Source of the DNA: a virus
Taxonomy: Duplodnaviria > Caudoviricetes
IMG/VR virus record: IMGVR_UViG_3300021400_000369
Coordinates: 1 to 64,000 of that record
DNA: 64,000 nt
Reading direction: 5' to 3' (one strand)
Of the stretch, positions 970 to 26,538 are shown in pieces. The stretch's first letter is position 1. The number at the start of each line of letters is the position of its first letter. Under the pieces are notes generated by a model. The model searched no databases. It had not been told where the DNA came from and was given only the letters and a program-made list of their open reading frames with translations. Position numbers and translations under genes: made by a program.

Positions 970-1593
970 TTATAATACCACCTCCTCATCCTTTCTGCCA
1001 TTATTGTCATAGTAGAACACACCTCCAATGTCAACATCATCATTAATCAATCCCTTTTCAAAGGATACTCGGCTGCTTGGTCTGAAGACATCACCATCAC
1101 TCATCTCCCAATATGAAACACCTTCATATTGCTGGGAAATGAACTCGATCTTTCCAATTAAACCATAATACATCTCCTTCTCACTTTCATCAGGAGATTG
1201 GGAAGCAAGTCTCCTCAGGGTTTCTATTGAAAGCCTCATGCCTTTTTCTGCGAAGCCGATTCCATCTTCATCCACCACTACATGAATGATGTTGGAATCA
1301 TCTTCAACTCTTTCAAGAACAACAACCTTAAAGGTATAATTCTTCTTCCCATCTTCCAATTTACCTCCAACATTTGTGATTTCCAAAAAGTTTCCATGGA
1401 AATCATTATATATATGTTGAAGAGCATCATTGTGAGGAAGCCAGAACTCATCACCTTTTTCATCTCGTCCAATGACCTGACGATTAGGTTTCTCTGGACT
1501 TCTGACCATATACATTCTCATGCAACCCAGAACGCTCATTAAATCTCTAACTAATGGAATTCTACCTTTTTTCTCATTTTCATAACTAACCAT
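970..1593 (-). CDS. Hypothetical protein
   Basis: 207 aa, RBS GGTGATAAT, preceded by a family C element. Confidence 0.75.
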   Translation of the reverse strand: MVSYENEKKGRIPLVRDLMSVLGCMRMYMVRSPEKPNRQVIGRDEKGDEFWLPHNDALQHIYNDFHGNFLEITNVGGKLEDGKKNYTFKVVVLERVEDDSNIIHVVVDEDGIGFAEKGMRLSIETLRRLASQSPDESEKEMYYGLIGKIEFISQQYEGVSYWEMSDGDVFRPSSRVSFEKGLINDDVDIGGVFYYDNNGRKDEEVVL

Positions 1594-1639
1594 ATTATCA
1601 CCTTTTATTTTTGTTTTGGATTTTTAAGACTCACCATGT

Positions 1640-2902
1640 CTATCCGATAATCTCCCATACGATTTGTCCTCTGCATATTGAACAGTAATCACAACATTTG
1701 CAGTTGCAGTTGCATATATGAAGAGTTTCAATATCATATTCTTCAGGAAGATCTTCATATTCCTTTTCTATCATTTCAAATGATTCAATTGCTCTGAACC
1801 AATTAGCGTCCTCAACTTTTCTGTACAGCTTCTCATTGGAAGCATTGAGCACCAACCAGTAAGGCTTGTTGGACCAATCGAGATCATATCTTGCAGAGTA
1901 GATGTAGAATCTTCCATCAATGTCCTTATCAGACATTCCTTTATCCTTCATCTTTTTCACAATACCGTTCACAATCTCAAAGATTTCTTCAAGGGTTTCC
2001 TGATCAGGAACATCTCCTGTGTCACAGAATCTCATGCCGTTTCTATCATACATAATTTTCTTGTAGAAGAAATCAATCTTCTCCTGTGTTGTATGAGTAG
2101 CCCAGGCATTCATTCTCTTCATTACTCTGTCTCTTACATTCTTGTAAGTAGTTTCCATATGTTTGGCGTAACATACGTCAGGGCATTGACACAGTCCATA
2201 TCTTTGACCTGAGCACATCCAAGCCAGTTCAAATGCCAGGTAGAACCATTTCTTTCCAAGCTTGGAATTCTGATCGTCTCCAATCAATGGGAATTTTCCA
2301 TGTTCGTCAAAGTATCTTTTCTCATATGCGCTGACTCCGAACCAGTCATCACCGAGTTTGTAATCTTTTGGCACAAGAACCCATGTGACTTTCAAGTCAG
2401 CACTTGACTTCTTCTCACCTGCTGCATTATAGTAGATGATTGGATTGTTCTTGTCTCTGAACTCTCCATTCTCAACACATTCCATAAATGTCTTGTATTC
2501 TCTCTGGGTCAGCTTTGTCATCTTCCTGGTGGTTTCACTACTGATCCTGGTCGGACTTCCTCTGGTGAACAATCTCCTGTTGATGATGTTCTTATCAACA
2601 TTTGACAGGTATGATGTTGTTTCTGATGTGATCATTCTAATCACATCATTCACAATACTATCCTGATTATGGATAGTCTTTAACTCATCATAATTACATT
2701 CACCTTTGATTGCCTTTACAAACAAGGCTTGTCCGCTTATTTCATACAACTTGCTTTTGCTGCTGTTGTTCTTACCATTCTTGTAGACCGGAACCATTGT
2801 ATCTAAACATTCAATATCAATGTTGCACATCTCTTCAAGAGTGTATAATTTATCAGCAATTACATCTTCCATGATTAATTTTCTTGCAGTTCTTTTTACC
2901 AT
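1640..2902 (-). CDS. GP88-like (gene product 88, radical-SAM-like Cys-cluster) protein
   Basis: CQCPDVCYAK, RFCDTGD, FYIYSA and C-terminal CNCNCKCCDYC motifs resemble the phage GP88 family. Confidence 0.55.
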   Translation of the reverse strand: MVKRTARKLIMEDVIADKLYTLEEMCNIDIECLDTMVPVYKNGKNNSSKSKLYEISGQALFVKAIKGECNYDELKTIHNQDSIVNDVIRMITSETTSYLSNVDKNIINRRLFTRGSPTRISSETTRKMTKLTQREYKTFMECVENGEFRDKNNPIIYYNAAGEKKSSADLKVTWVLVPKDYKLGDDWFGVSAYEKRYFDEHGKFPLIGDDQNSKLGKKWFYLAFELAWMCSGQRYGLCQCPDVCYAKHMETTYKNVRDRVMKRMNAWATHTTQEKIDFFYKKIMYDRNGMRFCDTGDVPDQETLEEIFEIVNGIVKKMKDKGMSDKDIDGRFYIYSARYDLDWSNKPYWLVLNASNEKLYRKVEDANWFRAIESFEMIEKEYEDLPEEYDIETLHICNCNCKCCDYCSICRGQIVWEIIG

Positions 2903-2923
2903 AATATCATCTCCATTTTTTAT

Positions 2924-3595
2924 TTAGTATTCATTAAATTCGTAGTATAATCCTTCGTATATGTCTTCAGGGTAATCTTTCTCAGCCATTTTCATGAAAT
3001 ATTTACATATTTTCTTATTGTACTCCTCATCTTCCTGCATTCTCTTCAAATGCTTTTTAAACTTCTCTAAATCTTCTCCACCTTTGTAGAACAACACAGC
3101 ATCATTTAGATACATGAACACTCCTTGTTGTTTAAAGTAGATTTGCGGTTCTTTACTGAACTTGATTTTTCCATCTATTATCTTATAATCACACTCTATT
3201 CCAATAGTGTAATTACTTCCTAAAAATTCATTATGCAATTCGTTTATTAAATATCCTTGTTTCATTTTCATTGTATCATCCTCTATTAATTCAAATTCAA
3301 CTCTCCAGATTAATGTATCTAATGATACATCACCATTTAGGTTTTTAAAATATTTTAAATAATCTTCTTTATCATTAAAACCTTCCTTTCTTCCTTCCTC
3401 ATCAGTTAATTCTGATAAAGGTTCAAGGTGACAATCCTTGATCAGGATTTCGCCATATACTTCAGGAGTACGATCTATTTTAATCTTGTGACGTTTTCCA
3501 GGAATTGCTGGTCTGCGTCCGGTTCTATTCATTCTCCTGGTTACTGTCTTATTTCCATTGATTATCTGATTCTTAGTGTATTCATCGAACATCAT
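2924..3595 (-). CDS. ASCH domain protein with C-terminal extension
   Basis: GNKTVTRR...EGRKEGF...WRVEFEL is the ASCH signature. Confidence 0.75.
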   Translation of the reverse strand: MMFDEYTKNQIINGNKTVTRRMNRTGRRPAIPGKRHKIKIDRTPEVYGEILIKDCHLEPLSELTDEEGRKEGFNDKEDYLKYFKNLNGDVSLDTLIWRVEFELIEDDTMKMKQGYLINELHNEFLGSNYTIGIECDYKIIDGKIKFSKEPQIYFKQQGVFMYLNDAVLFYKGGEDLEKFKKHLKRMQEDEEYNKKICKYFMKMAEKDYPEDIYEGLYYEFNEY

Positions 3596-4263
3596 CTTAT
3601 TATACCTCCATATTTATTGTATTCCATATTTGCCTTTTCAATCTTATCCCATCCTGGGTAAAAGTCATCCATTAATTTTTTGAACTCACTTCCATGATTA
3701 TGAACATACAAGTGTGTTAGTTCATGAGTAATCACTTCCTTAATGATTTCCTCAGGCATCTGAACCAGCACAAGGTTAATCCAGATTCTTTCAGCCACTA
3801 CATTGCATGTTCCCCATTTGGTTTTCATTCTTTTGATTCGGAATTCCTTGGGAGCTCTTCCTGTAACTTGAACACATTCATCCATCATTCTCGGAAGTTC
3901 CTTTTTGAACAGACTCCTTCCTAATCTTGCAGCTGATTCCATCATATCACCATATAATATTATGGTGTTGTTATTAATTTCTCCAATCTTTGTCTTACCA
4001 TCCTTATGTTCAATATTATATTTCTTTCCAAAAAGATACATTGAAGAGAAATCAATCTCTTTTTTGCTTTGATCGATTTCCTTTTGCATCTCTCTTAATG
4101 TATCAACATTCTCTTTCAATAAGGCTTCGACATAATCCATCTCCACCCATGATGGAACAGATGCATACACCTGCATGCGTCTTTTATCTGTTCCGATTTG
4201 AAATCTTCTCATTCTCTTATTATTTCTCACTCTTATATCTACATCTATTCCTTCTATATTCAT
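3592..4263 (-). CDS. M48/YgjP (DUF45, SprT-like) zinc metallohydrolase
   Basis: MKTKWGTC...WINLVL...HELTHL..HNHGSEF. Confidence 0.85.
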   Translation of the reverse strand: MNIEGIDVDIRVRNNKRMRRFQIGTDKRRMQVYASVPSWVEMDYVEALLKENVDTLREMQKEIDQSKKEIDFSSMYLFGKKYNIEHKDGKTKIGEINNNTIILYGDMMESAARLGRSLFKKELPRMMDECVQVTGRAPKEFRIKRMKTKWGTCNVVAERIWINLVLVQMPEEIIKEVITHELTHLYVHNHGSEFKKLMDDFYPGWDKIEKANMEYNKYGGIIR

Positions 4264-4271
4264 ATTATCAC

Positions 4272-5525
4272 CTATTCTTCTTCAATGATTTTACTAATAT
4301 GTTTTCCTAATCTTTCAACAACACCTATGACCAATGCGTTACCCATCATGAAATATCTTCTTCTTTCAGTCATGGATTTCGCTTGCACATTTGTCCAATT
4401 ATCAGGAAACATTTGGATTCTTTCAGCTTCCATAGGAGTAAGGGTTCTTAACTTACCTGTTCTAATATCTTTCACTATATGAGTACTTCTGTTCATAGTG
4501 GATTCACTTGTTAATAATGTTCTAGCAGGTCTGTTAAGATAATCAGGGAAAGCCACATTACCTTCTGAGAAGAAATACTTCTCACCATTGGGTTTTGTTC
4601 TCTCTATCTTCTTGCTACCTTTTAGGTATTTCATTCTTTCAATCTTTTCATCTGTTAAGAAATACTTTTCATTAATTTCACCTTTCTCTATGATATCTCC
4701 CAATGTAGTTATTTCATCACAATTTGGTTTTGTCTTAAATGTATAGATATTACCTTTATGCATGAATCCTGAATTCAGGAATTGGAAGATGAAGCGATCG
4801 CTGAGATCAACCAAATCTTTAAACCCTTTTATGCTGTTAACATCTCTCTCAGGTTCAGACTCATCTACCTTTACTGGGAAGCAGGAAGCAAATACTCCAT
4901 CATAGTAGATTATCTCTTCAGCGTTTTTCCGACTTATTTCCTGATAGTATTTTGTTGACTCATGATAAGCAAAAATAAATACTCTTCGTCTTTTTTGAGG
5001 GAATCCATACTCAGCAGCATTGATAACTCTCCATTCCACACCATAACCATTATCCCATAATGTTTTAAGGATTATTCCAAAGTCTCTACCTCTTTGAAAT
5101 GATGGAGATTTAAGTAGCCTGTCCACATTTTCAAGTAATATAAATGGTGGTTGTTTCTTTTCTAAGATTTCAGCAATCTGCCACCAGAGAACTCCTTTCT
5201 TGCCTTCAATTCCTTTTTCATTTGATAATGAACGAGCAACTGAATAGTCCTGACATGGGAAGCCTCCAACTAAAAGAGTGTGATCTGGGATGCTTGTCTT
5301 ATCAATAAGACTAATATCCTCATTCACATGGTTTTCACTTTCTCCGAATCGTTCCACATAGCAATCATAAGCCGCTTGGGTTTTAGTGCTCGGTTCCCAT
5401 TGATTAATCCAAACAAAATCCCAAGTATCATCTTCAACGACTTCATTGTTTTTTAATTCAACCTTATTTAATCCACAACGGAATCCACCAACTCCTGCAA
5501 ATAATTCTACTACTGTCTTATCCAT
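4272..5525 (-). CDS. dcm: DNA (cytosine-5) methyltransferase, M.Sau3AI-like
   Basis: ELFAGVGG (I), GGFPCQDYS (IV), ENV (VI), QKRRRVF (VIII), MGNA (X); NQWEPS, LLKSPSFQRGRDF and PARTLLTSE..NRSTH recall M.Sau3AI; start corrected to the ATG at 5525 (RBS GGTGAT). Confidence 0.92.
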   Translation of the reverse strand: MDKTVVELFAGVGGFRCGLNKVELKNNEVVEDDTWDFVWINQWEPSTKTQAAYDCYVERFGESENHVNEDISLIDKTSIPDHTLLVGGFPCQDYSVARSLSNEKGIEGKKGVLWWQIAEILEKKQPPFILLENVDRLLKSPSFQRGRDFGIILKTLWDNGYGVEWRVINAAEYGFPQKRRRVFIFAYHESTKYYQEISRKNAEEIIYYDGVFASCFPVKVDESEPERDVNSIKGFKDLVDLSDRFIFQFLNSGFMHKGNIYTFKTKPNCDEITTLGDIIEKGEINEKYFLTDEKIERMKYLKGSKKIERTKPNGEKYFFSEGNVAFPDYLNRPARTLLTSESTMNRSTHIVKDIRTGKLRTLTPMEAERIQMFPDNWTNVQAKSMTERRRYFMMGNALVIGVVERLGKHISKIIEEE

Positions 5526-5529
5526 ATTA

Positions 5530-5838
5530 TCACCATTCATTTAATTTAAAACAAATTCTATTCTCGCAATATTCATCAATCTCATATGTGAATATCTTCA
5601 TTCCAAGTTTTTGATTTAATTCTTCAAAATATTTCTCAATTCTTGGTTTGACAATCTTAAATTCTTTCTCTAAATAAGCTTGATATTCATACTCATTATT
5701 AAAATCATCAATTCTTTTAAATTCTATATCATCATTTAATGGTTTATAATCTAATCGGAGGCTATTGTCTCCAACCCATTCAAAACCATATTTTTCATTC
5801 AATTCTTTAAACATTTTTTTTAATTCATCTTTTATCAT
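5530..5838 (-). CDS. Hypothetical protein
   Basis: Start corrected to MIKDEL (RBS GGTGATAAT). Confidence 0.7.
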   Translation of the reverse strand: MIKDELKKMFKELNEKYGFEWVGDNSLRLDYKPLNDDIEFKRIDDFNNEYEYQAYLEKEFKIVKPRIEKYFEELNQKLGMKIFTYEIDEYCENRICFKLNEW

Positions 5839-5842
5839 ATTA

Positions 5843-6818: not shown

Positions 6819-6890
6819 ATTATCACCTTTATTTTTTTTGTTTTATATTTTTGATGAGGGAGAATATTAACTCCCAATAGTTTATTTATG

Positions 6891-7679
6891 TTATTCAATT
6901 TCTTCATCGAAGAACTCTTTAATAAATTTCATATAAAGTTTTTCTAATTCACAATGCATATCGTGAGCCCACCATTCATTAGTTGGGTTTTCTTGACCTG
7001 TATGTTTTTCAAATGTAGCTTCAAGTATCTCCCAATCAATACAACACGGTAATGTGTTATCCGCAAAGAAATCACAACAATCGTTGTCATCGTAAAGAGA
7101 TAGTCTTTGTATTTCAAGAATTCCAAGTAATTCATCTATCGGCATTAGATTGATAAATTTTTTGTAATTGAAATTATATGTGCCATTTTCGTTAGCAATG
7201 ATACATAATGGCACAAGCTTTCTTATTGTTTCTTTTGAAACTGTATGTCTACGATAATATGAGTGTCCCATTTCTTCCATTCTATCAAGAATGGTGGTAT
7301 TTTCAAGTGTTTCTGGATAATACTCTAATTTTACTTCATCAAGAAGTCGCAGAGATCTTTCCACATATTCTTCTTCGGTCATCATTTCATGATTGTCTTT
7401 GTAAACTGTACCTCCTGGTGCGGCTAAGTTCATGTAAAGTGTGTCAATATATTCCTGATATGTTTGAGTGTATGGATCACTATCTCCATCATCTTGATGG
7501 ATTACTTTTTGATTGTCATCAATGATAAAAACAATGCATGCAGTTCCGAAAAAAGGATCACGATATATGCTAATTACTTCGTTTTCTAATTCTGTCAGTA
7601 ATTGCATATTGCCTTTTGTCATTTTCATGTTTTGTGTTTTTCTTTCAATTGCGTTTTTTACTTTGTCTGCTAATACCAT
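6891..7679 (-). CDS. Hypothetical protein
   Basis: 262 aa, RBS GGTGATAAT, preceded by a family B element. Confidence 0.75.
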   Translation of the reverse strand: MVLADKVKNAIERKTQNMKMTKGNMQLLTELENEVISIYRDPFFGTACIVFIIDDNQKVIHQDDGDSDPYTQTYQEYIDTLYMNLAAPGGTVYKDNHEMMTEEEYVERSLRLLDEVKLEYYPETLENTTILDRMEEMGHSYYRRHTVSKETIRKLVPLCIIANENGTYNFNYKKFINLMPIDELLGILEIQRLSLYDDNDCCDFFADNTLPCCIDWEILEATFEKHTGQENPTNEWWAHDMHCELEKLYMKFIKEFFDEEIE

Positions 7680-7764
7680 ATTATCACCATTTAATTTTGT
7701 TTTATATATTTTTGATGAAGGAGAATATTAACTCCCAATAGTTCGACAGTCTTTATTCTATTAT

Positions 7765-9010: not shown

Positions 9011-9088
9011 AATATCACCATTTTTTGTTTTTTTTGAGGCTTTTAGCGACTTCCTCCAGGTCGAATAATTCAACAGTTATTTATTACA

Positions 9089-9604: not shown

Positions 9605-9680
9605 AACATCACCTTTTTTTGTTTTTATATTTTGAGGCTTTTCGCGACTTCCTCCAGGTCGAATAGTTCGTCAGTTGTTA

Positions 9681-10133: not shown

Positions 10134-10430
10134 TTATCTTCTTCTGTTCCATCTGACATAAAATTTCTCACCGGCTTCTTTAAAAGCGTATTCATATGAA
10201 TCTATGTAGGATTTTTTATTTGGAAAAGCCTTTTCTAAAGCTTCCAAATTATTGTTGAAGAATTGTTTATCATCTTCATTTAATTCATAATCTTTGTTCG
10301 GTTTCATAGGTTCATCATAACGCATTTGAATCAATGGTTCGATGAACGCTTCATCAATAACACTTGATCCTATTTTAATAATTGCTTTCTTATTTTCATC
10401 TTTAAAAGTTATGTTCTGATGTAAATACAT
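10134..10430 (-). CDS. Hypothetical protein
   Basis: Start corrected to MYLHQN downstream of repeat A. Confidence 0.65.
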   Translation of the reverse strand: MYLHQNITFKDENKKAIIKIGSSVIDEAFIEPLIQMRYDEPMKPNKDYELNEDDKQFFNNNLEALEKAFPNKKSYIDSYEYAFKEAGEKFYVRWNRRR

Positions 10431-10541
10431 ATTATCACTTAATATTTTTTTGAGGCTTTTAGCGACATCCTCCAGGTCGAAAAATTCGTACAAATATCAA
10501 CAAACGAACACATCAACAAATACGCATTCGTTTGGTTACAA

Positions 10542-10736
10542 TTATTCTAATCCATTCCAATCCATGTAATGGGCTCTACGGTATTCATAATCTCTAATGT
10601 TCCGTTCAGCGATTGCTCTTTTGTATTCAGAATCTCTCGGTCCGTTGTCACACACACCGCATGTTCCGTACTCGCATTTCTCACATAACTTTGGGTTATG
10701 GTGCTCATTGTTTCCCCAGGTTTCATATTCTGTCAT
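10542..10736 (-). CDS. Small putative zinc-finger protein
   Basis: CEKC...CGVC, preceded by a family B element. Confidence 0.65.
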   Translation of the reverse strand: MTEYETWGNNEHHNPKLCEKCEYGTCGVCDNGPRDSEYKRAIAERNIRDYEYRRAHYMDWNGLE

Positions 10737-10810
10737 GATATCACTATTTTTTGTTTTTTATTATTGCATTTTTGATATGGGAGAATGCTAACTCCCAATA
10801 GTTCGACAGT

Positions 10811-12004
10811 CTAAATCATACGTGCGAGACACATAAGTTCTTTGTGGGATCGTTTGTTTAATATTCCTTCAAGATTTTTTATTGTCTCCTCGGTGATTCC
10901 ATTCTGATCTCTTGAGATGACAAGCATGATTCCGCTTAAATTAGAACTCAACCATTCATGAATTTGTTCCATGGCATATTCTTGGTCTTCTTCAAGTACT
11001 TCCAAAACATGGTCAATCGCCCATTCTCTGAATGTTTTCAGAATCTTGTCATATATTTCAGGGAACACCTCATTCCATATAATATTACGTAATTGGTCTT
11101 CTGTTAATTTTTCGAGAGCTGTACCATATAAGTCGTACTCATCATTAATCATTTCTACAATCTTATCCATTTCTTTTGTCTCATCCATTTTATCACCTAA
11201 ATCTAGTTTTAAATCATCAAACATTTCTGATATCTCATCAGCATCTTTTTCTTCATAACCATGTCCTTCAATACCCCAACTTGAGCTTGCGTAGAAATGG
11301 TTAAGATATTCTTTGAAAGTCATTGATTGAGGTATTGTATCATCTATATAGTCAGGATTTTTCATTTTTCCATAGTCATAGATTTTATTGTTTGAAATTT
11401 TCGCAACTCGATCAAATCCTGATATCTCATTATCAAATTTCAATAATTTTTTAATATTTTCTTCTGTGAGAGGTATTTTTTCAACTGTGTCGTAAATTCT
11501 GACATGTAATTCATGTCTTTTTCTTGTTTCTTCTTCCTTTTCCTTTTCAAAGACTGATTGGATTGGGGTTAAATCGTATCCCATCCAATGCTCCCAGCCA
11601 TTGTCTCCATCATCTTCTAAGCCGTTATCATCAATATCAATGGTAAAATATTTCAACTGTGGCTTTAATTCTCTTAGGTTTTCCAGTAATACTTCTTCCA
11701 ATACACATGCCTTGCCCATTTCGTATTCTTTTGGGTATCTAACATAGTCGCCTTTACGGTTCATTCTTGAACATGTTGATATGCTCAACCCAAGAGTGAT
11801 TTTATCGGTCTCGAAATCTTCAAAAACATCCAACTCATGAGGATAGAGTGGACCATCAATTTCAAATTTCTTTCCGTTCTTTATTCCATCTGAGATTTTC
11901 CAAGAGTCATCAAGAGGAAATGGACATGTGTCTTTGATGCATTGAATGGTTGAGTTTACATTTTCGATTTCTTTAATACTGTTTTTTGTCATTTTCATTT
12001 TCAT
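10811..12004 (-). CDS. Hypothetical protein (acidic, possibly a fusion of modules)
   Basis: 397 aa, RBS GAGGTGA; an internal GGTGATAAAATG at MDETKE suggests a fused former gene. Confidence 0.75.
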   Translation of the reverse strand: MKMKMTKNSIKEIENVNSTIQCIKDTCPFPLDDSWKISDGIKNGKKFEIDGPLYPHELDVFEDFETDKITLGLSISTCSRMNRKGDYVRYPKEYEMGKACVLEEVLLENLRELKPQLKYFTIDIDDNGLEDDGDNGWEHWMGYDLTPIQSVFEKEKEEETRKRHELHVRIYDTVEKIPLTEENIKKLLKFDNEISGFDRVAKISNNKIYDYGKMKNPDYIDDTIPQSMTFKEYLNHFYASSSWGIEGHGYEEKDADEISEMFDDLKLDLGDKMDETKEMDKIVEMINDEYDLYGTALEKLTEDQLRNIIWNEVFPEIYDKILKTFREWAIDHVLEVLEEDQEYAMEQIHEWLSSNLSGIMLVISRDQNGITEETIKNLEGILNKRSHKELMCLARMI

Positions 12005-12703: not shown

Positions 12704-12805
12704 TTTATCACCATTTTTTTGTTTTTTTGAGGCTTTTAGCGACATCCTCCAGGTCGAAATAAAATTCGTATAAAATCTAATAAACGAACACAAACACAAA
12801 TACGT

Positions 12806-13618: not shown

Positions 13619-13691
13619 AATATCACCATTTTATTTTTTGTTATTGTATTTTTGATAAGGGAGAATACTAACTCCCAATCGTTCGACGGTC

Positions 13692-14331: not shown

Positions 14332-14397
14332 GTTTATCACCATATTTTTTTGTTTTTTATTGAGGCTTTTAACGACGTCCTCCAGGTCGAAACAATT

Positions 14398-14868
14398 TTA
14401 TTTAATAAAAAAGTGTAATATATCTATTCGACCTCTTTCTTCTGAGTGGAAGTCAAGCATAAGATTCATTTGATCTCCTTCACAGATTTTTTCTTCTCTC
14501 ATTTTTTGAACGACCTTGAAAATATTACCTGTTTTCGGATTTCCGGTTATTTCAATCTTCTTATCCTTTTTTGTTATTGCAATGTCAGGATAATCATATG
14601 ACAACTTTTGTATCTTTTGAATCATGTTTTCTCTTTCCTTTTCTTTTTCCAGATTTTTTATCTTTGCTCCTTGTTGTAATAAAGTAGTCAATTCCTCTAA
14701 CCCTATCCAATCAGCGATATCATAATAGAACCATTCTCCAACGGCATTGTCTTCTGTTTCTAATATCGCTTCATAGTTTTTTTCTATGATTTCCAATAGT
14801 TTTTCTGTTGCAATGTTCATTCTCTTTTGGATGCCTTCTTTAACTTCTTCTAATGTCTTCTTTTCCAT
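14398..14868 (-). CDS. Hypothetical protein
   Basis: 156 aa, RBS GGTGAT, preceded by repeat A. Confidence 0.7.
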   Translation of the reverse strand: MEKKTLEEVKEGIQKRMNIATEKLLEIIEKNYEAILETEDNAVGEWFYYDIADWIGLEELTTLLQQGAKIKNLEKEKERENMIQKIQKLSYDYPDIAITKKDKKIEITGNPKTGNIFKVVQKMREEKICEGDQMNLMLDFHSEERGRIDILHFFIK

Positions 14869-14927
14869 ATTATCACCTAATGTTTTTTTGAGGCTTTTAA
14901 TGACGTCCTCCAGGTCATATTCAACTG

Positions 14928-15290: not shown

Positions 15291-15357
15291 ATTTTTCACC
15301 ATTTTTATTTTTTTTTTGAGGCTTTTAATGACGTCCTCCAGGTCATATTCAACAACT

Positions 15358-16627: not shown

Positions 16628-16694
16628 TTAATCTACCTCATTTTTATTTTTTTTTGAGGCTTTTAACGACATCCTCAGGTCGTATTCAACAATC

Positions 16695-17216: not shown

Positions 17217-17337
17217 AGTATCTACCTCATATGTTTTGTTTTTTTTTGAGGCTTTTAGCGACTTCCTCCAGGTCGTTGAAAAATTTCGTATAAAAACGAC
17301 CAAACGAACACAACAAAGAATACGTACTTATTGGTTA

Positions 17338-17934
17338 TTATTTTCTAAAGAGTTCATCAAACTCCGCAATTTTTTTATCTGTTTGACATCTGTGCTTACA
17401 TCTTTCTTTTTCGTTAATGCTTTCTTTGCTGATTTCTACCCATCCCAACCAATTATAGTCTTCATAACTGAAGTCTTCAACAGTAACCTCTCCTTCTATG
17501 TTACATATTTTATCTATTACATAGTTTGCAACATCTAAATATCCATTATTGCCATTGAAGACAATTTTTAATTTTGTCTCAATTCCTTTTCTTTTTCTTT
17601 CTATTTCACCCCTTTTTATCCATGTATTGTCTTCTAAGATTTCTAAGATTTCTTCATATGTTTTTGCTTCAATAAGCACTTTTATGAGATTATCTAAATG
17701 GATTTTAGGGATCCATCTTTCATCTTTGACGTGATAAGCGTCTGTTAATACCAATTCATTATTGAATGTGTTTTTTATATATTTTTTGAAATCTTGATTC
17801 TGTTCTTTATCAAGCCATTTCTGTCCTTCAACCTGTGCAAAATGCCATCTAAAGAAATTTCGATCTTCAATTATCTCTATAGTACCTAATTCCTTTACCT
17901 TTTCTTTAAATTCTTCAATAGTCATTTTTATCAT
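17338..17934 (-). CDS. Hypothetical protein, paralog of 18786-19328
   Basis: Shared MIKMTIEEFKEKV, LTDAY, WIPK and RC.HRC.TDK.IA.FDE. Confidence 0.75.
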   Translation of the reverse strand: MIKMTIEEFKEKVKELGTIEIIEDRNFFRWHFAQVEGQKWLDKEQNQDFKKYIKNTFNNELVLTDAYHVKDERWIPKIHLDNLIKVLIEAKTYEEILEILEDNTWIKRGEIERKRKGIETKLKIVFNGNNGYLDVANYVIDKICNIEGEVTVEDFSYEDYNWLGWVEISKESINEKERCKHRCQTDKKIAEFDELFRK

Positions 17935-18007
17935 AATATCACCATTTTTTTATTTTCTTTTGAGGCTTTTAGCGACATCCTCCAGGTCGAAACAGTTCGT
18001 ATAAAAT

Positions 18008-18718
18008 TTATTCTTTTTCATTTCCTATGTTGTTGAATGCTTCAATGATAAATTCTGATTCTCCACATTCATCATAATAGTCTTTGATTCTTTGTTTCAA
18101 ATTTTTGCAGAATTCATCACTTGATTGGGCTTTGAAGTCGGTTAAGTCCATGTTGTGGATTATGACAATTTTACCAAACGCTTCAAATACTTGATGTTTG
18201 AATTCATCAGCTTTGTTTAGGGCGCAGAGTTTTTTGTATCCCACGCATAGTTCTTCGATCAGATCGGCATCATCCAAACAGTCATCGATTTTATTCAGGA
18301 CTTGTTTGACTTTGAAATCCTTCCATTTCTGATCATCTTCGGTTTTGAGATTCTTCAATGTAGGAATTCTCATGTTCCTGACATCTTCATTTTCAATCAG
18401 GAATACAACTTCTGGCTTGTATAAGTCAAAGCCGTATAGTTTATTCATAATCATCCAAATATCTGATAATACCGGATATTCTTCTCCAAAACTGTTTCTA
18501 CATTCTTCTCTGGCTTTTGAATACATTTCTTGGAACTCTTCCTGGGTGAAGAGTTTTTTATGTGTGAAGATCGCGTAATTGATTACACATTCTGAGATGT
18601 TTTCTTCCAAGTACACACCATAGGTGTGCATCTCTTCTTCACTATTCAGCAGTTTTTTCAAGCATTTTTTACCACATTCATCTAAATTGTTATAGATTTT
18701 GTATACATTGTTTTCCAT
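18008..18718 (-). CDS. Hypothetical protein
   Basis: Start corrected to MENNVY, preceded by repeat A. Confidence 0.7.
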   Translation of the reverse strand: MENNVYKIYNNLDECGKKCLKKLLNSEEEMHTYGVYLEENISECVINYAIFTHKKLFTQEEFQEMYSKAREECRNSFGEEYPVLSDIWMIMNKLYGFDLYKPEVVFLIENEDVRNMRIPTLKNLKTEDDQKWKDFKVKQVLNKIDDCLDDADLIEELCVGYKKLCALNKADEFKHQVFEAFGKIVIIHNMDLTDFKAQSSDEFCKNLKQRIKDYYDECGESEFIIEAFNNIGNEKE

Positions 18719-18785
18719 ATTATCACCTAATATTTGTTTGAGGCTTTTAGCGACATCCTCCAGGTCGAAACAGTTCGTATAAAAA

Positions 18786-19328
18786 CTATAAGTCAAATAT
18801 CTCATCGAATTTAGCTATCGCCTTATCTGTTTCACATCGGTGTCGACATCTGACTTTTTCATCAATATCTTTTTTACTGATTACGAGTTCGAGTCTGTAA
18901 ATTTCTACATCAATGTTTTCATTTTCTTCGAGTACACCTGCTACACATCTTTTTGCTGTTAATGCTATATCACTCCTTTCAAAATGAATTTTTGCTTGTT
19001 GAAAGATATCGTCTTTCTTTTTAATCTCAGTTTCTCTTATAAATGGTGACTGAGGGTTTATTTCTTCATAACTCTCAGCACGTATAATGTGCTGTACGAT
19101 TCTTTCGATTTCTGTTTTTGGAATCCATACATTACATTTATTAGGTTCGTCCACTAAATACGCATCTGTTAAAATTAGGTTGTAACTTAATTGTTCAACT
19201 ATGTAGTCCTTTAAATCTTTGTTCTGGCCTTTTGCTTGCCAGAAATAATATCCATTTCTTTTTATAAATGCCAGATTGTCTGTCTTTTCTACTTTTTCTT
19301 TGAACTCTTCTATTGTCATTTTTATCAT
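18786..19328 (-). CDS. Hypothetical protein, paralog of 17338-17934
   Basis: Motifs shared with the paralog; preceded by repeat A. Confidence 0.75.
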   Translation of the reverse strand: MIKMTIEEFKEKVEKTDNLAFIKRNGYYFWQAKGQNKDLKDYIVEQLSYNLILTDAYLVDEPNKCNVWIPKTEIERIVQHIIRAESYEEINPQSPFIRETEIKKKDDIFQQAKIHFERSDIALTAKRCVAGVLEENENIDVEIYRLELVISKKDIDEKVRCRHRCETDKAIAKFDEIFDL

Positions 19329-19394
19329 ACTATCACTATTCTTTTTGTTTTTTGTTGAGGCTTTTACCGACTTCCTCCAGGTCGTGTTCGACGG

Positions 19395-20148: not shown

Positions 20149-20211
20149 TTTATCACCATTTTTTTTATTTTTTGAGGCTTTTAACGACTTCCTCCAGGTC
20201 GCGTTCACATT

Positions 20212-20499: not shown

Positions 20500-20568
20500 T
20501 CTATCTACCTCTTTTTTATTTTTTTTGAGGCTTTTAACGACATCCTCCAGGTCGCATTCAACTGTTAT

Positions 20569-20972: not shown

Positions 20973-21041
20973 TATCTCTACCTTTTTTTGTTTTTTTGTT
21001 GAGGCTTTTAACGACATCCTCCAGGTCGAATAGTTCATCAG

Positions 21042-21695: not shown

Positions 21696-21883
21696 ATTTT
21701 ACACCTTTTTATAATCATGCTTCATCAGGCACGTTTCATGCCGAATCATCAGCGGAAAAAATTCAACAATCTTTTTACATACGAATGATCATGGTTCATC
21801 ATTCAAATTCACCATAACCATTCATTCGCCCAAACCCACACCACACACCATTTTTTCGCGTCCTCCATTCAACCACTCACCCC

Positions 21884-21909
21884 TGATGTCACAATTTTTT
21901 GTGACATCA
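21884..21909. promoter_or_regulatory. Perfect 11-bp inverted repeat
   Basis: TGATGTCACAA-TTTT-TTGTGACATCA. Confidence 0.4.
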
Positions 21910-21934
21910 AGGGAACATTTTGATAATCAATCTA

Positions 21935-22109
21935 CTACATATTATCACCATTTAATTTTGTTTTATATTTTTGATAAGGGAGAATATCAACTCCCAAGTT
22001 CGACAGTCTCATTCTTCCACAACCATTGTTTATCCTACATATTATCACCATTTAATTTTGTTTTATATTTTTGATAAGGGAGAATATCAACTCCCAAGTT
22101 CGACAGTCT
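21935..22109 (-). repeat. 75-bp identical direct repeat at 100-bp period (family B element + RBS + ATG-TAG)
   Basis: 21935-22009 equals 22035-22109. Confidence 0.9.
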
Positions 22110-23386
22110 TACTCTTTCGCAACTATTGTTTCAGCTAACATCTCTACTTCCCATCTTTTCCAAATGGTTGCAGCAAGTGTATCACCTATACGTTTGTAGA
22201 CAGGATTGCCACTTCGTGACATCCTGTTAAATTCTACAAAGATAGTGATGTATTCACATTCACCACCATCTTGAGTTGATGATTTTATTACCCCATTTTT
22301 GAGGATGACAATTTCATCCTCTTGTGGGTCATAATGATCCGCTTTCAATGTTTTTATGGAGGAGAAATATTCTCTTTCCATATTCTTCCATTTTTTCAAG
22401 GTGTTATAAACAACACCAAGATACTCACTATCGTACCATGCTCCGTATCTGTAATCCCAGACATTGAAGCAGCCTTGACCATTTCCGCCGTGGCAGATTG
22501 AGGTAATTAAATGTTGATTGTATGATTGCTCTCCATATATATCGACATAGTCGATTTCCAAGTATCTACTTTCATGTGACCCATATGATGATGGGTCATG
22601 GTATCCCCCGATATATATTCTTTTCACATTCATTTTATTCAGAAATATTGGATGGAATGAATCCTCCAATATTTCTATTTCATATGCGATCATTGATCGC
22701 ACATTTTCTATTAGGGATGTATCAATGCCTAATTTTTTATTTTCAGTCACCCATTCTTTCATATCTGAATGGATTTGTGAAACCCATTCATATACTTTGT
22801 TGATTTCTTCACTGGATATCTCTCCAACGAAGAAACCTAAGTATTCTTCGTTTACCGCGAAGCATCCTGCTCCATACCCACCATGTGTATGGTAGGTATG
22901 GAAGCCGTCTGCTTCCAATTTTGCTACATCATGTGAATACTCTGAAGAGGTTTCCTCTTCATTTAACACAATGCTTGGGTATTCTCCAAAGTATCCACTA
23001 TTTTCGATTTCTTTTGTCATCTCTTTTATTTCTTGCCATTTTACATTAGCAAGATTCATAATTTCATCATCGAAAGCGTCGAATTTGAATTCAATTCGAT
23101 TGTTCCAATTGTTCCAGCTAAGATGGAACAGAACGTTCTTTAATTTCATGTTATCACAAGGTTTGTTGTATTCACGAGGGTCTTCTTCATATCCGTGGGT
23201 ACGGTTTAATTGTGCCCACATATGGTTCCATGTAAAATCCAACTCTTCTTGTACTTCCGCAGGAATATATTTCACTATTAAACTTCTTGGGTCTACACCC
23301 AGAACGTATTTTTCACCTTTTATTTCAATAGGTACTTCCATAACGTTGTTATCATAAACAACACCAAATTTTCCTTTAAATATCAT
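22109..23386 (-). CDS. Hypothetical protein
   Basis: 425 aa; start corrected to MIFKGKF downstream of a family C element. Confidence 0.75.
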   Translation of the reverse strand: MIFKGKFGVVYDNNVMEVPIEIKGEKYVLGVDPRSLIVKYIPAEVQEELDFTWNHMWAQLNRTHGYEEDPREYNKPCDNMKLKNVLFHLSWNNWNNRIEFKFDAFDDEIMNLANVKWQEIKEMTKEIENSGYFGEYPSIVLNEEETSSEYSHDVAKLEADGFHTYHTHGGYGAGCFAVNEEYLGFFVGEISSEEINKVYEWVSQIHSDMKEWVTENKKLGIDTSLIENVRSMIAYEIEILEDSFHPIFLNKMNVKRIYIGGYHDPSSYGSHESRYLEIDYVDIYGEQSYNQHLITSICHGGNGQGCFNVWDYRYGAWYDSEYLGVVYNTLKKWKNMEREYFSSIKTLKADHYDPQEDEIVILKNGVIKSSTQDGGECEYITIFVEFNRMSRSGNPVYKRIGDTLAATIWKRWEVEMLAETIVAKE

Positions 23387-23466
23387 TTTTATCACCATTG
23401 TTATCATTGGATTTTTAAGACTCACCATGTCAAATCCTTGTTTTAATGGACATTATATGCAATAAA

Positions 23467-23511
23467 ACCCATCTGATGGAATCGAACCACCATTATTAAC
23501 CATTGACGGGT
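23467..23511 (-). ncRNA. tRNA-like module without anticodon arm (variant 1)
   Basis: ACCCGUC-AAUGGUUAAUAA-UGGUGG-UUCGAUU-CCAUCA-GAUGGGU. Confidence 0.6.
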
Positions 23512-23580
23512 AATTGGAGAGGGAGTCTTTCGACTCCCCTTAGATTGATGTGCTAGGGGGGTTTGCTGAGACCCCCTAAA

Positions 23581-23681
23581 GCCTGTATCATGGAATCGAA
23601 CCATGACGGATCACCAGAACAGGCAGCTACAGTCTCAAGGTTTCTATTTTCGCTTGGGGAGAAACCAGGTCAAAGAACCCA
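23581..23681 (-). ncRNA. Structured RNA: GGUUUCU/AGAAACC hairpin + 44-nt tRNA-like module
   Basis: Module 23581-23624 GCCUGU-UCUGGUGAUCC-GUCAUGG-UUCGAUU-CCAUGAU-ACAGGC, identical in 3 copies. Confidence 0.65.
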
Positions 23682-23688
23682 TTATCCA

Positions 23689-23928
23689 TTAATATTCGTA
23701 CGCTTCTATCATCTCCCAGGTTCGGTTTTCACCGATAATTTTGAGGTCTCTAATCACTTTCTTGACACTCTCTACACTTCCTGTATTGAGCGCTTCCTTC
23801 ATCTCCTCTATAAGGAGACTGATTAATTCAATCTCCTCCAGGAAGAATTCTTCTTCTAAAGATAGAATGAAGTTTGCAGCTTCATTGCAAACCTCCTCTA
23901 CCTCTTTTATCTTTTTTGCATCTTTCAT
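23689..23928 (-). CDS. Small acidic hypothetical protein
   Basis: Start corrected to MKDAKK, preceded by a family D element. Confidence 0.65.
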   Translation of the reverse strand: MKDAKKIKEVEEVCNEAANFILSLEEEFFLEEIELISLLIEEMKEALNTGSVESVKKVIRDLKIIGENRTWEMIEAYEY

Positions 23929-23992
23929 GTTCTCACCTTTTTTAACATGCTTCATCAGGCACACCTCATGCCGAATCATAAGCACAATATAT

Positions 23993-24313
23993 TTATATTA
24001 TTTTTGTGTAGGTTGTGAAACCATATATCTCATATTCCGCCATATGATAGCGGATCCTGTCTATATTATCATTAGCCTCTTTTGACCAATAGACTCCACG
24101 AATTAAATCATGGTTTAATAACTTCAGCATTTGTCTTGCTGTTATATTCAGCAAGACAGCTAATACTGCTATATCTGCGGTATTGCAGACATTTTCTCCA
24201 ATTTTAATTGGAGACTGAGCAAGTACAACTTCTGTAACTTCTGTAACTTCTTCTTCAACTTCTTCTTCAACTTCTTCTACAATTTCTTCTAAAAGTTCAA
24301 ATTCTTTTGTCAT
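23993..24313 (-). CDS. Hypothetical protein with acidic N-terminal EEEV repeats
   Basis: 106 aa, RBS GGAGGG. Confidence 0.65.
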   Translation of the reverse strand: MTKEFELLEEIVEEVEEEVEEEVTEVTEVVLAQSPIKIGENVCNTADIAVLAVLLNITARQMLKLLNHDLIRGVYWSKEANDNIDRIRYHMAEYEIYGFTTYTKII

Positions 24314-24420
24314 TCATAATCCCTCCTTTTATTATTGCAATGCTGGACAGGGATTGTCCTTGTTTATTGGCATGCATGATTCACCAGCCTATGATAATGA
24401 CAAAACTCATAGGACTTGAT

Positions 24421-24468
24421 AACTCATTAATGGAATCGAACCATCACTAAGCCCACCAGGTATGAGTT
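24421..24468 (-). ncRNA. tRNA-like module without anticodon arm (variant 2)
   Basis: AACUCAU-ACCUGGUGGGCUUAG-UGAUGG-UUCGAUU-CCAUUA-AUGAGUU. Confidence 0.6.
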
Positions 24469-24508
24469 ACACATGAACGAACTAGTTTGGGGTTGGAGAG
24501 ACCCCAAA

Positions 24509-24610
24509 GCCTGTATCATGGAATCGAACCATGACGGATCACCAGAACAGGCGGTTAACAACTCAAGGTTTCTATTCTCGCTTGGGGAGAAACCAGGGCA
24601 AACAACCCAC
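24509..24610 (-). ncRNA. Structured RNA: hairpin + 44-nt tRNA-like module (copy 2)
   Basis: Module 24509-24552 is identical to 23581-23624. Confidence 0.65.
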
Positions 24611-24617
24611 TATTACT

Positions 24618-24758
24618 TTAAAAACCTCTACAGAAGCGTCTGCGGGCTTCCAGAGTAATTCTTAAAGATTTTTGACTTTCTTCACTCTCTTTTCTGAGAG
24701 CAAGAATTTCTTGGTTTTTTTCCCAAGTCCTTTGTTCTTTTGCGGTTCTTTTTTCCAT
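24618..24758 (-). CDS. Small hypothetical protein (46 aa)
   Basis: MEKRTAKEQRTWEKNQE...RFCRGF*, RBS GGTGAT; not in the ORF track. Confidence 0.55.
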   Translation of the reverse strand: MEKRTAKEQRTWEKNQEILALRKESEESQKSLRITLEARRRFCRGF

Positions 24759-24776
24759 TTTATCACCTTTAAATCG

Positions 24777-25223
24777 TTAATATCCGAGCATCTCAAATGT
24801 TTTGTTTTCTAGTTTTGAAAAATCATCAAAATTATCTTTTTCTGAAAATTTGATATTATCAAATATCCAGTTGATAATTTTTTCCAGGAAGTCTTGAACT
24901 TCCTTATTAAAGCTCACTACTCTGCTTACATCCATACTGTATTCTGCCCAACAAGAGCCACAAAGGCTTCCTGATGTTGCTTCTACAGCGACTACCTCAG
25001 GGTAATTATATACGTTTAGATCACATCTGACTTCTAAACTCAGTCTGTATTGAGTTCTTCTGTCATGATCAACATTATGTACCAATAATGTCTCTGGGAA
25101 TTCGTTTCTGTCGATTGCTTTTTTCACTTCATTTTCAATTTCTGGTAAGCTGAAAATATAATGAATAAAGTCATTTTCAGTTTTTATGATACTCTCTACT
25201 TGTTCTTTTGTTAGTGTTTGCAT
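24777..25223 (-). CDS. Hypothetical protein
   Basis: 148 aa, RBS GGTGAT, preceded by a family C element. Confidence 0.7.
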   Translation of the reverse strand: MQTLTKEQVESIIKTENDFIHYIFSLPEIENEVKKAIDRNEFPETLLVHNVDHDRRTQYRLSLEVRCDLNVYNYPEVVAVEATSGSLCGSCWAEYSMDVSRVVSFNKEVQDFLEKIINWIFDNIKFSEKDNFDDFSKLENKTFEMLGY

Positions 25224-25276
25224 CTTTTATCACCATTTTTTTGTTTTTTCGGATTTTTAAGACTCACTATGTCAAA

Positions 25277-25380
25277 GCCTGTATCATGGAATCGAACCAT
25301 GACGGATCACCAGAACAGGCATCTACAATCTCAAGGTTTCTTGTTCTTGCTTATAGGTGGAAACCAGGACAAAGACACCT
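25277..25380 (-). ncRNA. Structured RNA: hairpin + 44-nt tRNA-like module (copy 3)
   Basis: Module 25277-25320 is identical to the other copies; the upstream GGUUUC/GAAACC stem is kept with a different loop. Confidence 0.65.
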
Positions 25381-25392
25381 ATTTATAGGGAG

Positions 25393-25635
25393 TTAAAATT
25401 TAACTTTTCCGCAATATAATGCGGATTTATTAACTCCCTTTTTCATGCTAACATTCTGATATCTTTGAGATACCAGTTTGTTAGAGGATTTCTGATTCAT
25501 TTTTGGCTCATTCTTTCTGAACTTTTTCTCGTTCTGATATTTAAATGAACGATAGAGAAGTTCAGAAATGAGTTCTATATCTTCCATATTTGTGATGGAG
25601 GATGATATGAATCTAACCCTCTCTTTACTGATCAT
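25393..25635 (-). CDS. Small basic hypothetical protein
   Basis: Start corrected to MISKERV, preceded by a family D element. Confidence 0.6.
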   Translation of the reverse strand: MISKERVRFISSSITNMEDIELISELLYRSFKYQNEKKFRKNEPKMNQKSSNKLVSQRYQNVSMKKGVNKSALYCGKVKF

Positions 25636-25722
25636 TCTTTCACCTCTTTTATGATCATGCTTCATCAGGCACATCTCATGCCGAATCATCAGCCATTTAA
25701 CATTAGCCGACTTCTACCTGAA

Positions 25723-25806
25723 TTAGGTATTTATGAAGTCAGCTTCTTCATATCTATCTTGTTCATTCATCATTGCGATGAATTGTCTCATGAAGTCACT
25801 ATACAT
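25723..25806 (-). CDS. Putative 27-aa peptide
   Basis: MYSDFMRQFIAMMNEQDRYEEADFINT*, strong RBS GGTGATAAT after a family C element. Confidence 0.45.
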   Translation of the reverse strand: MYSDFMRQFIAMMNEQDRYEEADFINT

Positions 25807-25862
25807 ATTATCACCATAACATTATAATTGGATTTTTAAGACTCACCATGTCATTTCAACAT

Positions 25863-26192
25863 CTATTTCCATCCCTGATCTGGATAATAGAACATCATAT
25901 GAACAATCGCATCCTTTGGTATGGATGTGTCATTGACGAACAAGTGATCGCCTGCGTTGTTTATGATAACCCCATCATCATAACCGATAAATATATCTAT
26001 ACTAATACAATTATCCAGTCTAATTGAGCACATACTAGGGGTTTGTTTCCCCTTGGTGGTATAGATATGAGGGTGGGGATACCAATCCCCATCGATGTCA
26101 ACGTCAGCGTGTTTAAATCCATAGTCGTCATTGAGTGTCTGATCGATGCGTTTTGTTGCATCCATTATCTGCTGTATATAATCTGCGTCCAT
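25863..26192 (-). CDS. Hypothetical protein (first gene of the leftward array)
   Basis: 109 aa, RBS GGTGAT, preceded by a family C element. Confidence 0.7.
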   Translation of the reverse strand: MDADYIQQIMDATKRIDQTLNDDYGFKHADVDIDGDWYPHPHIYTTKGKQTPSMCSIRLDNCISIDIFIGYDDGVIINNAGDHLFVNDTSIPKDAIVHMMFYYPDQGWK

Positions 26193-26538
26193 ACTATCAC
26201 CATTAATAATATTATAATTGGATTTTTAAGACTCACCATGTCATTTCAATAATTCAAAATTTCCTTAACATTATTCCCATACGAAACAAGAATAACATCA
26301 AGGAAACACTTCCGAACCCTTCCAATCCAACCCAACCAACCACCACACCCTAAAATTACACGAGCCAGAAAAGTATCATACATTCAACAAAATTTCCCCA
26401 AAAAATCAATAAACGAAAACAAAAAAAGAACCGCAACCCAACCATAAGGGGGGTGAAAATAAGGACATCGACTTTCTCTTTCTTTCAATGAATGTGGTGT
26501 TCTCACAATTTCATCCCGTTTTTCTCATACGAAAAAAC

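Follow-up and report, generated by a model that had tools for sequence, protein, structure and literature searches.

Folded RNA elements at the gene junctions of a 25-kb early array in a virus most likely infecting gut Methanobacteriales

The 97,018-bp IMG/VR record IMGVR_UViG_3300021400_000369 represents a single virus, and the window analysed here is its first 64 kb (64,000 nucleotides). Between positions 970 and 26250 its minus strand carries an early array of small genes, with short repeated elements at many of the junctions. These junction repeats are best explained as cis-acting RNA modules that work on the sense transcript of the array. Two of the element families, A and B, are compact H-type pseudoknots, A backed by compensatory changes and B by covariation, and family B belongs to a motif found in viruses of bacteria, archaea and eukaryotes. 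The likeliest single reading, drawn by analogy and short of an even chance, is that long transcripts would be cut at the junctions and that the pseudoknots left at the new 5' ends would stall exonucleases of the RNase J type.

A greedy open reading frame (ORF) call gave 49 co-oriented minus-strand ORFs spanning 970-26192, close to the 50 or so small co-oriented genes of the initial annotation. The region has a marked strand skew. Sense-strand runs of seven or more T are absent from it, where 2.0 would be expected, while the late region has 7.

970-26250, minus strand: early gene array of 49 co-oriented ORFs, GC content 0.30-0.39, no sense-strand T run of 7 or more

Motif scans over all 97,018 bp found six copies of family A, fifteen of B, five of C and three of D, every one on the minus strand and within 1618-26241. 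The strict B pattern, applied to the whole genome, gave 15 matches on the minus strand and 0 on the plus strand. These 29 elements, as many as had first been estimated, occupy 27 intergenic gaps, families D and C sharing a gap in two cases. Together with five minihelices, the structured units total 34. Some 20 other junctions, which are tight or overlapping, hold no element.

The A and B units follow one order: stop codon, YGAAY word, structure, A-rich spacer, GGTGA-type ribosome-binding site (RBS) and ATG. The element starts 9-26 nt past the upstream stop in 17 of 21 units; three more lie 50-63 nt from the stop and one has no called upstream ORF. A YGAAH word ending no more than 15 nt upstream was found at 19 of the 21 elements, compared with 15% of random array positions (binomial P 5e-14), and is missing at the elements at 14388 and 6877. 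The spacer leading to the GGTGA, GGTAG or AGTGA word has a median length of 18 nt and is on average 78% A (20 of 21 units, the copy at 21997 being omitted from this measurement). The initial annotation had described compact structured RNA at the junctions, a layout of stop codon, GAA-type word, structure, A-tract, RBS and AUG, and different families in the same slot. This description is borne out: the structures are sense-strand pseudoknots with covariation for A and B, their order is fixed in the A and B units, and A, B, C and the minihelices all stand at gene junctions.

The folds of A and B are alike in having two stems of 4-5 bp each and an A-rich third loop. In family A, a 5-bp stem 1 (S1), GGGAG/CUCCC, closes a loop whose 3' half pairs with a strand 8 nt downstream to form stem 2 (S2), RYAUU/AAURY. 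When the copies of the window and of a related contig were aligned, 60 of 60 cells were paired across 6 distinct rows, with compensatory changes in two S2 pairs and a G-U in one S1 pair. The six copies in the window are as follows.

22065-22095, minus strand: family A pseudoknot, copy in a 100-bp tandem duplication
21965-21995, minus strand: family A pseudoknot, second copy of the tandem duplication
13646-13676, minus strand: family A pseudoknot, S2 with G-C replacing A-U (compensatory)
10766-10796, minus strand: family A pseudoknot, two compensatory S2 pairs
7706-7736, minus strand: family A pseudoknot, S1 with a G-U pair
6845-6875, minus strand: family A pseudoknot

A search of IMG/VR with the family A pattern returned 6 loci, every one unrelated or coding-like. 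The tandem duplication (21962-22161, minus strand) repeats an A pseudoknot, an RBS and an ATG followed immediately by a stop codon, and is single in the related contig.

Family B has a 4-bp stem 1, and GAGG in its loop pairs with CCUC after an A-rich spacer. The loops are near-invariant among the 15 copies in the window and among 13 copies in a relative.

21001-21027, minus strand: family B pseudoknot
20527-20553, minus strand: family B pseudoknot
20174-20200, minus strand: family B pseudoknot
19357-19383, minus strand: family B pseudoknot
18740-18766, minus strand: family B pseudoknot
17962-17988, minus strand: family B pseudoknot
17248-17274, minus strand: family B pseudoknot
16656-16681, minus strand: family B pseudoknot, 1-nt deletion in loop 1, S2 kept
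15318-15344, minus strand: family B pseudoknot, fourth S1 pair U-A for C-G
14890-14916, minus strand: family B pseudoknot, fourth S1 pair U-A
14362-14388, minus strand: family B pseudoknot, no YGAAY word upstream
12729-12755, minus strand: family B pseudoknot
10452-10478, minus strand: family B pseudoknot
9634-9660, minus strand: family B pseudoknot
9036-9062, minus strand: family B pseudoknot

These copies are instances of a more general motif, GAC-CUG-N4-AN-GUC-N3-AAAAG-N4', with a conserved stem 1, conserved loops and a stem 2 of free sequence. In a set of 64 rows drawn from the window, its relatives and unrelated contigs, pair 4 of stem 1 was CG in 47 rows, AU in 5, GC in 4, UA in 3, UG in 2 and another combination in 3, and pair 2 was AU in 61, UA in 2 and CG in 1. 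The search pattern behind this set had fixed stem 2 in advance, and IMG/VR was therefore rescanned with stem 2 left unspecified, which gave at least 116 loci. Among the matches listed (90 distinct sequences), 53 pair at four of the four stem 2 positions and 17 at three of four, where chance would give about 2% for the full pairing; the fully paired stems have 18 different sequences. Over the full set of 81 distinct rows, taken without selection for pairing, 78% of the S2 cells pair. The S2 covariation score is 0.384; shuffling lowers it to 0.126, with none of 500 shuffles as high as the real alignment, and sliding the partners gives no more than 0.104.

No family in Rfam 15 was matched by the B copies of the window or by 20 external loci, the only match being to a neighbouring tRNA. 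Across the 64-kb window, Rfam gave no match at gathering score, with one chance hit (E 0.75) in 28 kb. Assignment of B to the preQ1-I riboswitch was rejected, as it scored 14.2 bits against a gathering score of 39 and in a different register.

The wider distribution of the B-type motif, given here for the matches listed, extends well beyond the present virus. The five phage or prophage loci that were fetched all have one arrangement: a minor-head-protein gene, the motif, then after 50-75 nt the start codon of a scaffold-like gene, and finally a capsid-like gene. Locus L057 has the same scaffold and capsid layout, the scaffold being backed by PHROG, and in several phage loci the motif directly follows a terminator-like hairpin with a U-run. 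By BLAST, one prophage motif region matched Enterococcus phage 4995_2 (92% coverage, 85% identity), and two others had no match among named phages. A second context is provided by tRNA genes: four tRNA arrays have the motif 2-3 nt before their tRNA-Leu, and in locus L254 it follows a tRNA at a distance of 2 nt. In freshwater phage contigs, many of them orthologous and so not independent counts, it lies about 22 nt before a gene of 288 amino acids, with a Gam-like gene adjacent. Two loci hold the motif twice: in L238 the copies are in tandem, 32 nt apart, and in L254 a full copy is followed by a degenerate second one, between two tRNAs.

In prokaryote genomes the broad B pattern gave 68 loci, mostly chance coding matches of the LEE..KSL type, and four convincing ones (L061, L100, L121 and the spacer L103). 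The motif is present in three cyanobacterial genomes, and also in a CRISPR spacer of a Rivularia genome. In the Rivularia contig (L103), the B-type sequence is flanked by two direct repeat copies ending in ATTGAAA, which identifies it as a CRISPR spacer against a motif-bearing phage. A further set of records, about 10 kb long, are picorna-like RNA viruses. Here the motif was found downstream of the RdRP_1 domain and on the same strand in 3 of 3 records scored, in the intergenic region ahead of the second ORF, usually with another hairpin next. Its presence in RNA virus genomes indicates that the motif works as RNA. Taken together, the contexts outside the array are compatible with a role at segment boundaries.

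Several features of the record point to an archaeal host. The late genes form a tailed-virus set with terminase, prohead protease, capsid, tail tube, baseplate and a tape-measure fusion of 4076 amino acids. The top named-phage match of its terminase, TerL, is Methanobacterium virus PhiF1 (30% identity, 88% query coverage), and pseudomurein-binding repeats (PF09373) occur in a protein outside the window, at genome positions 69888-70958 (L126 5888-6958). Among public sequencing runs, the top DNA run containing the virus is an animal gut metagenome. Because of the PhiF1 match, the pseudomurein-binding repeats and the gut metagenome run, the host is most likely a gut member of the Methanobacteriales, which agrees with the archaeal framing that had been proposed. 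A PF09373 pseudomurein-binding protein is a marker for viruses of this order. An IMG/VR protein search with a 439-amino-acid early protein and with TerL returned no close relatives. The far end of the record (L127) encodes, on the minus strand, an anaerobic ribonucleotide reductase and a dCTP deaminase-like gene.

The tape-measure fusion (window 42419-54649, plus strand) combines a PhageMin_Tail domain, an RNase_T-type exonuclease domain and a stretch at about 48644-49462 that resembles archaeal Rpo1C/A'' (E 4e-15 to solved archaeal RNA polymerase chains). The fusion was examined for the catalytic DxDGD word, which is not present, and it is therefore not a complete polymerase. The Rpo1C-like region suggested earlier as an injected module is thus real as a stretch of similarity, in a protein that falls short of a polymerase; it may be injected and either mimic or replace a subunit of the host RNA polymerase (RNAP).

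Comparison with relatives shows that genes and elements move together. The strict B pattern led to a metagenome contig of 24.4 kb, which holds no fewer than 13 B, 2 A and 1 C elements, and to a second contig of 9 kb with 2 or more B. Both align to the window as a mosaic of blocks, at 66-94% identity. In the relative, the gene at 6891-7679 is missing and a single A copy stands where the window has two flanking ones, the overlap being 68 nt; the difference spans 6883-7675. At 14389-14861 and at 17275-19342 the relative has other DNA, with the B elements on both sides conserved. The cassette 10428-10772 lies on the opposite side of the gene 10811-12004. Zones reaching 45 nt from an element make up about 14.5% of the region and hold, in total, 14 of the 30 internal block ends. 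The 60-90-bp units could serve as portable DNA homology, by which genes would be lost, gained and swapped together with their own expression module.

The remaining families occupy the same kind of position. Family C has the GAC..GUC..UUAAAA skeleton of B and exists in just two sequence variants; its pattern retrieved 19 loci, among which no family with pairing and no external relatives were found.

26220-26241, minus strand: family C element before the first gene
25830-25851, minus strand: family C element
25251-25272, minus strand: family C element, one substitution, in a gap shared with D and minihelix 1
23409-23430, minus strand: family C element
1618-1639, minus strand: family C element, last in the array

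Family D is a 6-bp hairpin, GGUUUC/GAAACC, with a variable loop.

25330-25368, minus strand: family D hairpin
24562-24597, minus strand: family D hairpin
23634-23669, minus strand: family D hairpin

The exact T-loop word GGTTCGATTCC occurs five times, each time inside an acceptor plus T-arm minihelix, and the five minihelices are spread over three gaps. Minihelices 4 and 5 keep the architecture of the first three with different stems that still pair, G-U pairs included (MFE, minimum free energy).

25277-25320, minus strand: minihelix 1, acceptor-like stem, 12-nt bulge and T arm
24509-24552, minus strand: minihelix 2, identical in sequence to minihelix 1
23581-23624, minus strand: minihelix 3, identical in sequence to minihelix 1
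24420-24470, minus strand: minihelix 4, other acceptor and T stems, still pairing (MFE -14.7, z -1.9)
23467-23511, minus strand: minihelix 5, other stems with G-U pairs (MFE -14.4, z -1.84)

The five tRNA-like modules of the initial annotation are accordingly present as five exact words, in minihelices and not in tRNA genes. ARAGORN found 0 tRNA genes in default, intron and low-threshold modes, a 401-nt 'intron' call being an artefact, and Rfam gave no tRNA at E of 10 or below in 23400-23720.

A fifth repeat, E, precedes genes in three copies on the minus strand (about 25655-25689, 23945-23979 and 21716-21749). Its 6-bp hairpin, which shows a change from G-U to G-C, stands between CUGAUGA-like words, and the repeat can alternatively be read as a short ORF, MIRHExCLMKH. 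The CUGAUGA words recall a hammerhead ribozyme, an assignment rejected on architecture; neither a hammerhead nor any other Rfam match was obtained. Just upstream of one C element, at 23429-23464 (minus strand), an 18-nt core equals the Rfam CRISPR-DR7 consensus (21.1 bits, the gathering score being 37; E 0.088 when 321 nt were searched) and may be a solitary repeat-like unit or chance. The 380-nt gap separating the divergent arms (26250-26630) holds minus-strand runs of seven and six T just upstream of the first C element, and also a GTTGAAT word. An ASCH-domain protein is encoded within the array at 2924-3595 (minus strand).

Under the likeliest single reading, the array would be transcribed into long RNAs, each covering one to several genes. 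Cleavage would occur shortly downstream of each stop codon, where YGAAY is the candidate target word, or else RNase P or RNase Z would cut at the minihelices. This would leave the pseudoknot at the 5' end of the downstream message, where it would stall 5'-3' exonucleases (archaeal RNase J, aCPSF2), and the A-rich spacer and GGTGA RBS would remain free for ribosomes. Families A and B have unrelated sequences and share one topology and one slot, which suggests a function of the fold instead of a sequence-specific protein site or promoter. The occurrence of the motif beside both mRNAs and tRNAs argues against a purely translational role.

This idea has a published analogue of similar build in the exonuclease-resistant RNAs (xrRNAs) of the coremin type. 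In coremin, a 3-4-bp hairpin is followed by an A-rich spacer in contact with the loop and then by a second hairpin, on which resistance depends; Xrn1 halts at the base before hairpin 1, loop 1 is YGAD or YGNNAD with larger loops tolerated, and the spacer of 8-10 nt is conserved (PMC10520033, PMC10321173). A Watson-Crick variant from a picorna-like virus, xrRNA-WCC, has an S2 of GAG/CUC and predicted A-minor contacts, and has been shown to resist Xrn1 (PMC10321173). A flaviviral xrRNA is reported to stop bacterial RNase J1 in vitro, an enzyme that it never meets in nature (PMC5760640), which makes a general mechanical block of RNase J plausible. A bolder extension, doubtful at present, would make the B fold the first natural exonuclease-resistant RNA class of prokaryotic viruses, shared by three domains. 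The enzyme stopped by the 27-nt fold would then be Xrn1 in picorna-like RNA viruses, and RNase J both in Firmicutes and cyanobacterial phages and in the methanogen virus. The latter would have multiplied B and added A, C and minihelices, giving about 27 separately stabilised, swappable messages from a 25-kb transcript.

A number of results speak against this picture. None of the public runs listed that contain the virus is of RNA type, and four runs that were compared gave no notable RNA cover. The compensatory changes of family A come from a small sample of 6 distinct rows, and covariation support of the A and B kind does not extend to C and D. The missing runs of seven or more T are no more than suggestive of one long transcript, as the array has 4 T6 runs where 6.8 are expected and the depletion of T5 and T6 is not significant. 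In the comparison with relatives, 8 of the 30 block ends coincide with junctions that carry no element and 8 fall within genes. Gene indels and replacements in the relative do have elements at their flanks, as the initial annotation proposed to check, but breakpoints show no preference for element-bearing junctions over other gene junctions (14 versus 8 of 30). Known frameshift pseudoknots of similar size are described as failing to stall Xrn1 (PMC10321173). A second hairpin (hp2) directly downstream was found at 0 of 15 B elements in the window, as compared with 25 of 53 external motifs and 22 of 116 control windows. TATA-like octamers, matching at 7 of 8 positions, precede 8 of the 15 B elements by 18-26 nt; 2 of the 6 A elements have one in the 45 nt before them, and the rate at random positions is 14%.

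These octamers bear on the main rival, itself unlikely, in which the units are mobile cassettes with their own promoter for the host RNAP, of the BRE/TATA type (BRE, B recognition element) or specific to the virus, and the structure is a leader or operator. The polymerase might be retargeted by the injected Rpo1C-like module, for which the tape-measure fusion offers the region but not the catalytic word. A TATA box 18-26 nt upstream of B would set the start within the pseudoknot, and no such box is seen at 7 of 15 B and 4 of 6 A junctions. Many of the octamers are created by TAA stops or are part of one homologous sub-repeat, and the excess shrinks when set against element-free stops (10 of 24 versus 4 of 21). 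The A loop, UUAAUAUU, is itself TATA-like, with a C-A step 23-25 nt downstream in 4 of 6 copies, but it covaries with the downstream strand, which is an RNA constraint. The conserved YGAAY word would be available for some role in a promoter. In B, however, no AT-rich box stands at a suitable distance from the RBS, and the B-type motif works in RNA viruses. The per-gene promoter cassettes known as PeSL are described as driving similar shuffling (PMC2839356, PMC4122927).

It is improbable, though worth weighing next, that the units are translation modules, with the pseudoknot and A-rich tract acting as a ribosome standby site or enhancer, or holding terminating ribosomes for re-initiation. The fixed succession of pseudoknot, A-rich spacer (median 18 nt), RBS and ATG would suit such a role. 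So would the Shine-Dalgarno-like loop words, GGAGG in B and GGUGA in C and minihelices 1-3, the position of the motif elsewhere at 20-75 nt before the start codons of highly expressed structural genes, and its intergenic place ahead of the second ORF in picorna-like records. The motif nevertheless also abuts tRNA genes, which are untranslated. The GGAGG of B is paired in stem 2, a stem that varies freely in other viruses, and the functional RBS is the separate GGTGA word.

T4 RegB cuts at GGAG, and gp32 nucleates at a leader pseudoknot. That the present folds are operators of this sort, recognised by a viral or host RNA-binding regulator or nuclease that shuts off or times the early genes, is quite improbable. 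It would account for the near-invariant loops of the 15 window copies and the relative's 13, and for GGAG in both A and B, and the ASCH-domain protein of the array would be a candidate regulator. A, B, C and the minihelices have no common sequence, yet they share one slot, and the B loops stay unchanged across viruses of three domains, in which a common specific protein is out of the question. Least probable of all, nascent-RNA elements that keep RNAP elongating (antitermination, or protection against aCPSF1/FttA) would fit 25 kb of co-oriented genes with no strong oligo-T terminator but would need one or two sites and not 29, and selfish recombining repeats would explain direct-orientation repeats that mediate indels but would neither hold a fixed register to stop codon and RBS nor preserve pseudoknot covariation.

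The organisation of early expression in archaeal viruses is almost uncharted, and the 27 junctions with folded RNA modules offer a case in which RNA ends could be mapped directly. The B motif is a small, sequence-defined and strongly covarying fold that spans viruses of bacteria, archaea and eukaryotes and is absent from Rfam 15. If the fold does block 5'-3' exonucleases, the xrRNA principle would reach RNase J hosts, beyond eukaryotic RNA viruses. It would then also explain how phages boost scaffold and capsid output from a polycistronic message, and would supply a 27-nt RNA stabiliser for bacteria and archaea. In the literature searched, no description was found of the array itself, of an xrRNA from a prokaryotic virus or of the B motif. 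The earlier statement that the system is undescribed therefore holds for the array. It is less firm for the B motif, which has no Rfam family and was set against coremin variants by text only, and some picorna-like intergenic instances may already be published.

Among known systems, coremin is the closest in build. B has a stem 1 of four pairs with a G-N-C core, of which pairs 2 and 4 covary, and an A-rich UUAAA(A) spacer with a loop-spacer helix. As in coremin, the A-rich spacer is predicted to occupy the minor groove of the stem. Its GAGG/CCUC stem 2 can be set beside the GAG/CUC given for xrRNA-WCC (PMC10321173). GUC..GAC-GUUAAA strings of a 20-nt sequence printed in one report (PMC10520033) recur in loci L036 and L100, and both motifs occur in intergenic regions and untranslated regions. 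The differences are substantial. The middle pair of B stem 1 is mostly flipped to A-U, the coremin-like U-A being found in 2 of 64 rows. The B loop is a 9-nt CUG-N4-A-N, with Y at position 1, G at position 3 and a final C in 3 of 15 window copies, and not YGAD or YGNNAD. The spacer is N3-AAAAG, with an invariant A-run, followed by a 4-nt strand that pairs with the loop by Watson-Crick covariation, in place of ..CUAC. As the window copies have no hp2, membership of the coremin class fails on a defining feature. Some hosts of B-type viruses are bacteria and archaea, and in these RNase J would take the place of Xrn1.

Other small RNAs are more distant. Class 3 plant-virus xrRNAs, of 44-54 nt, combine a P1-P2 stack with an apical-loop hairpin, L2B, and a pseudoknot formed with the 3' end; B, at 27 nt with one 4-bp hairpin and neither P2 nor L2B, was rejected as a member. 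The theta ribozyme is likewise a small pseudoknotted RNA adjoining phage tRNA genes, and RNA end formation has been proposed for it (PMC10879173). B was rejected as such a ribozyme, related to that of hepatitis delta virus (HDV), because three features are missing from the motif: the 5' strand of P1, P2, and a J4/2 cytosine in register. No upstream complement to the B spacer was seen, by eye, in the window or the external loci.

The minihelices recall a different group. Acceptor and T-arm structures act as processing signals in mitochondrial tRNA punctuation, in plant-mitochondrial t-elements and in mascRNA. By analogy, acceptor/T-arm mimics between the genes of a long transcript could be cut by RNase P or RNase Z. 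The array differs from tRNA punctuation in that just 5 of 34 structured units are tRNA-like, and in that D and anticodon arms are absent.

At the level of genome organisation, the nearest system is the PeSL of T4-type phages, which joins a sigma-70 promoter to a terminator stem-loop and works at the level of DNA and transcription (PMC2839356, PMC4122927). In both cases, short conserved units stand as direct repeats between many small early genes, mostly of unknown function, indels and replacements between close relatives are bounded by the units, and a gene travels with its expression signal. The elements were rejected as terminator stem-loops of the PeSL type, since A-runs follow the structures on the sense strand and the array has no T run of seven or more. 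Here the units are pseudoknots and minihelices with RNA-level covariation, in a virus of an archaeal host, and lack an oligo-U terminator or a consistent promoter box. As the comparison with the relative indicates, cassettes move with their modules, and the array would be an RNA-based counterpart of PeSL.

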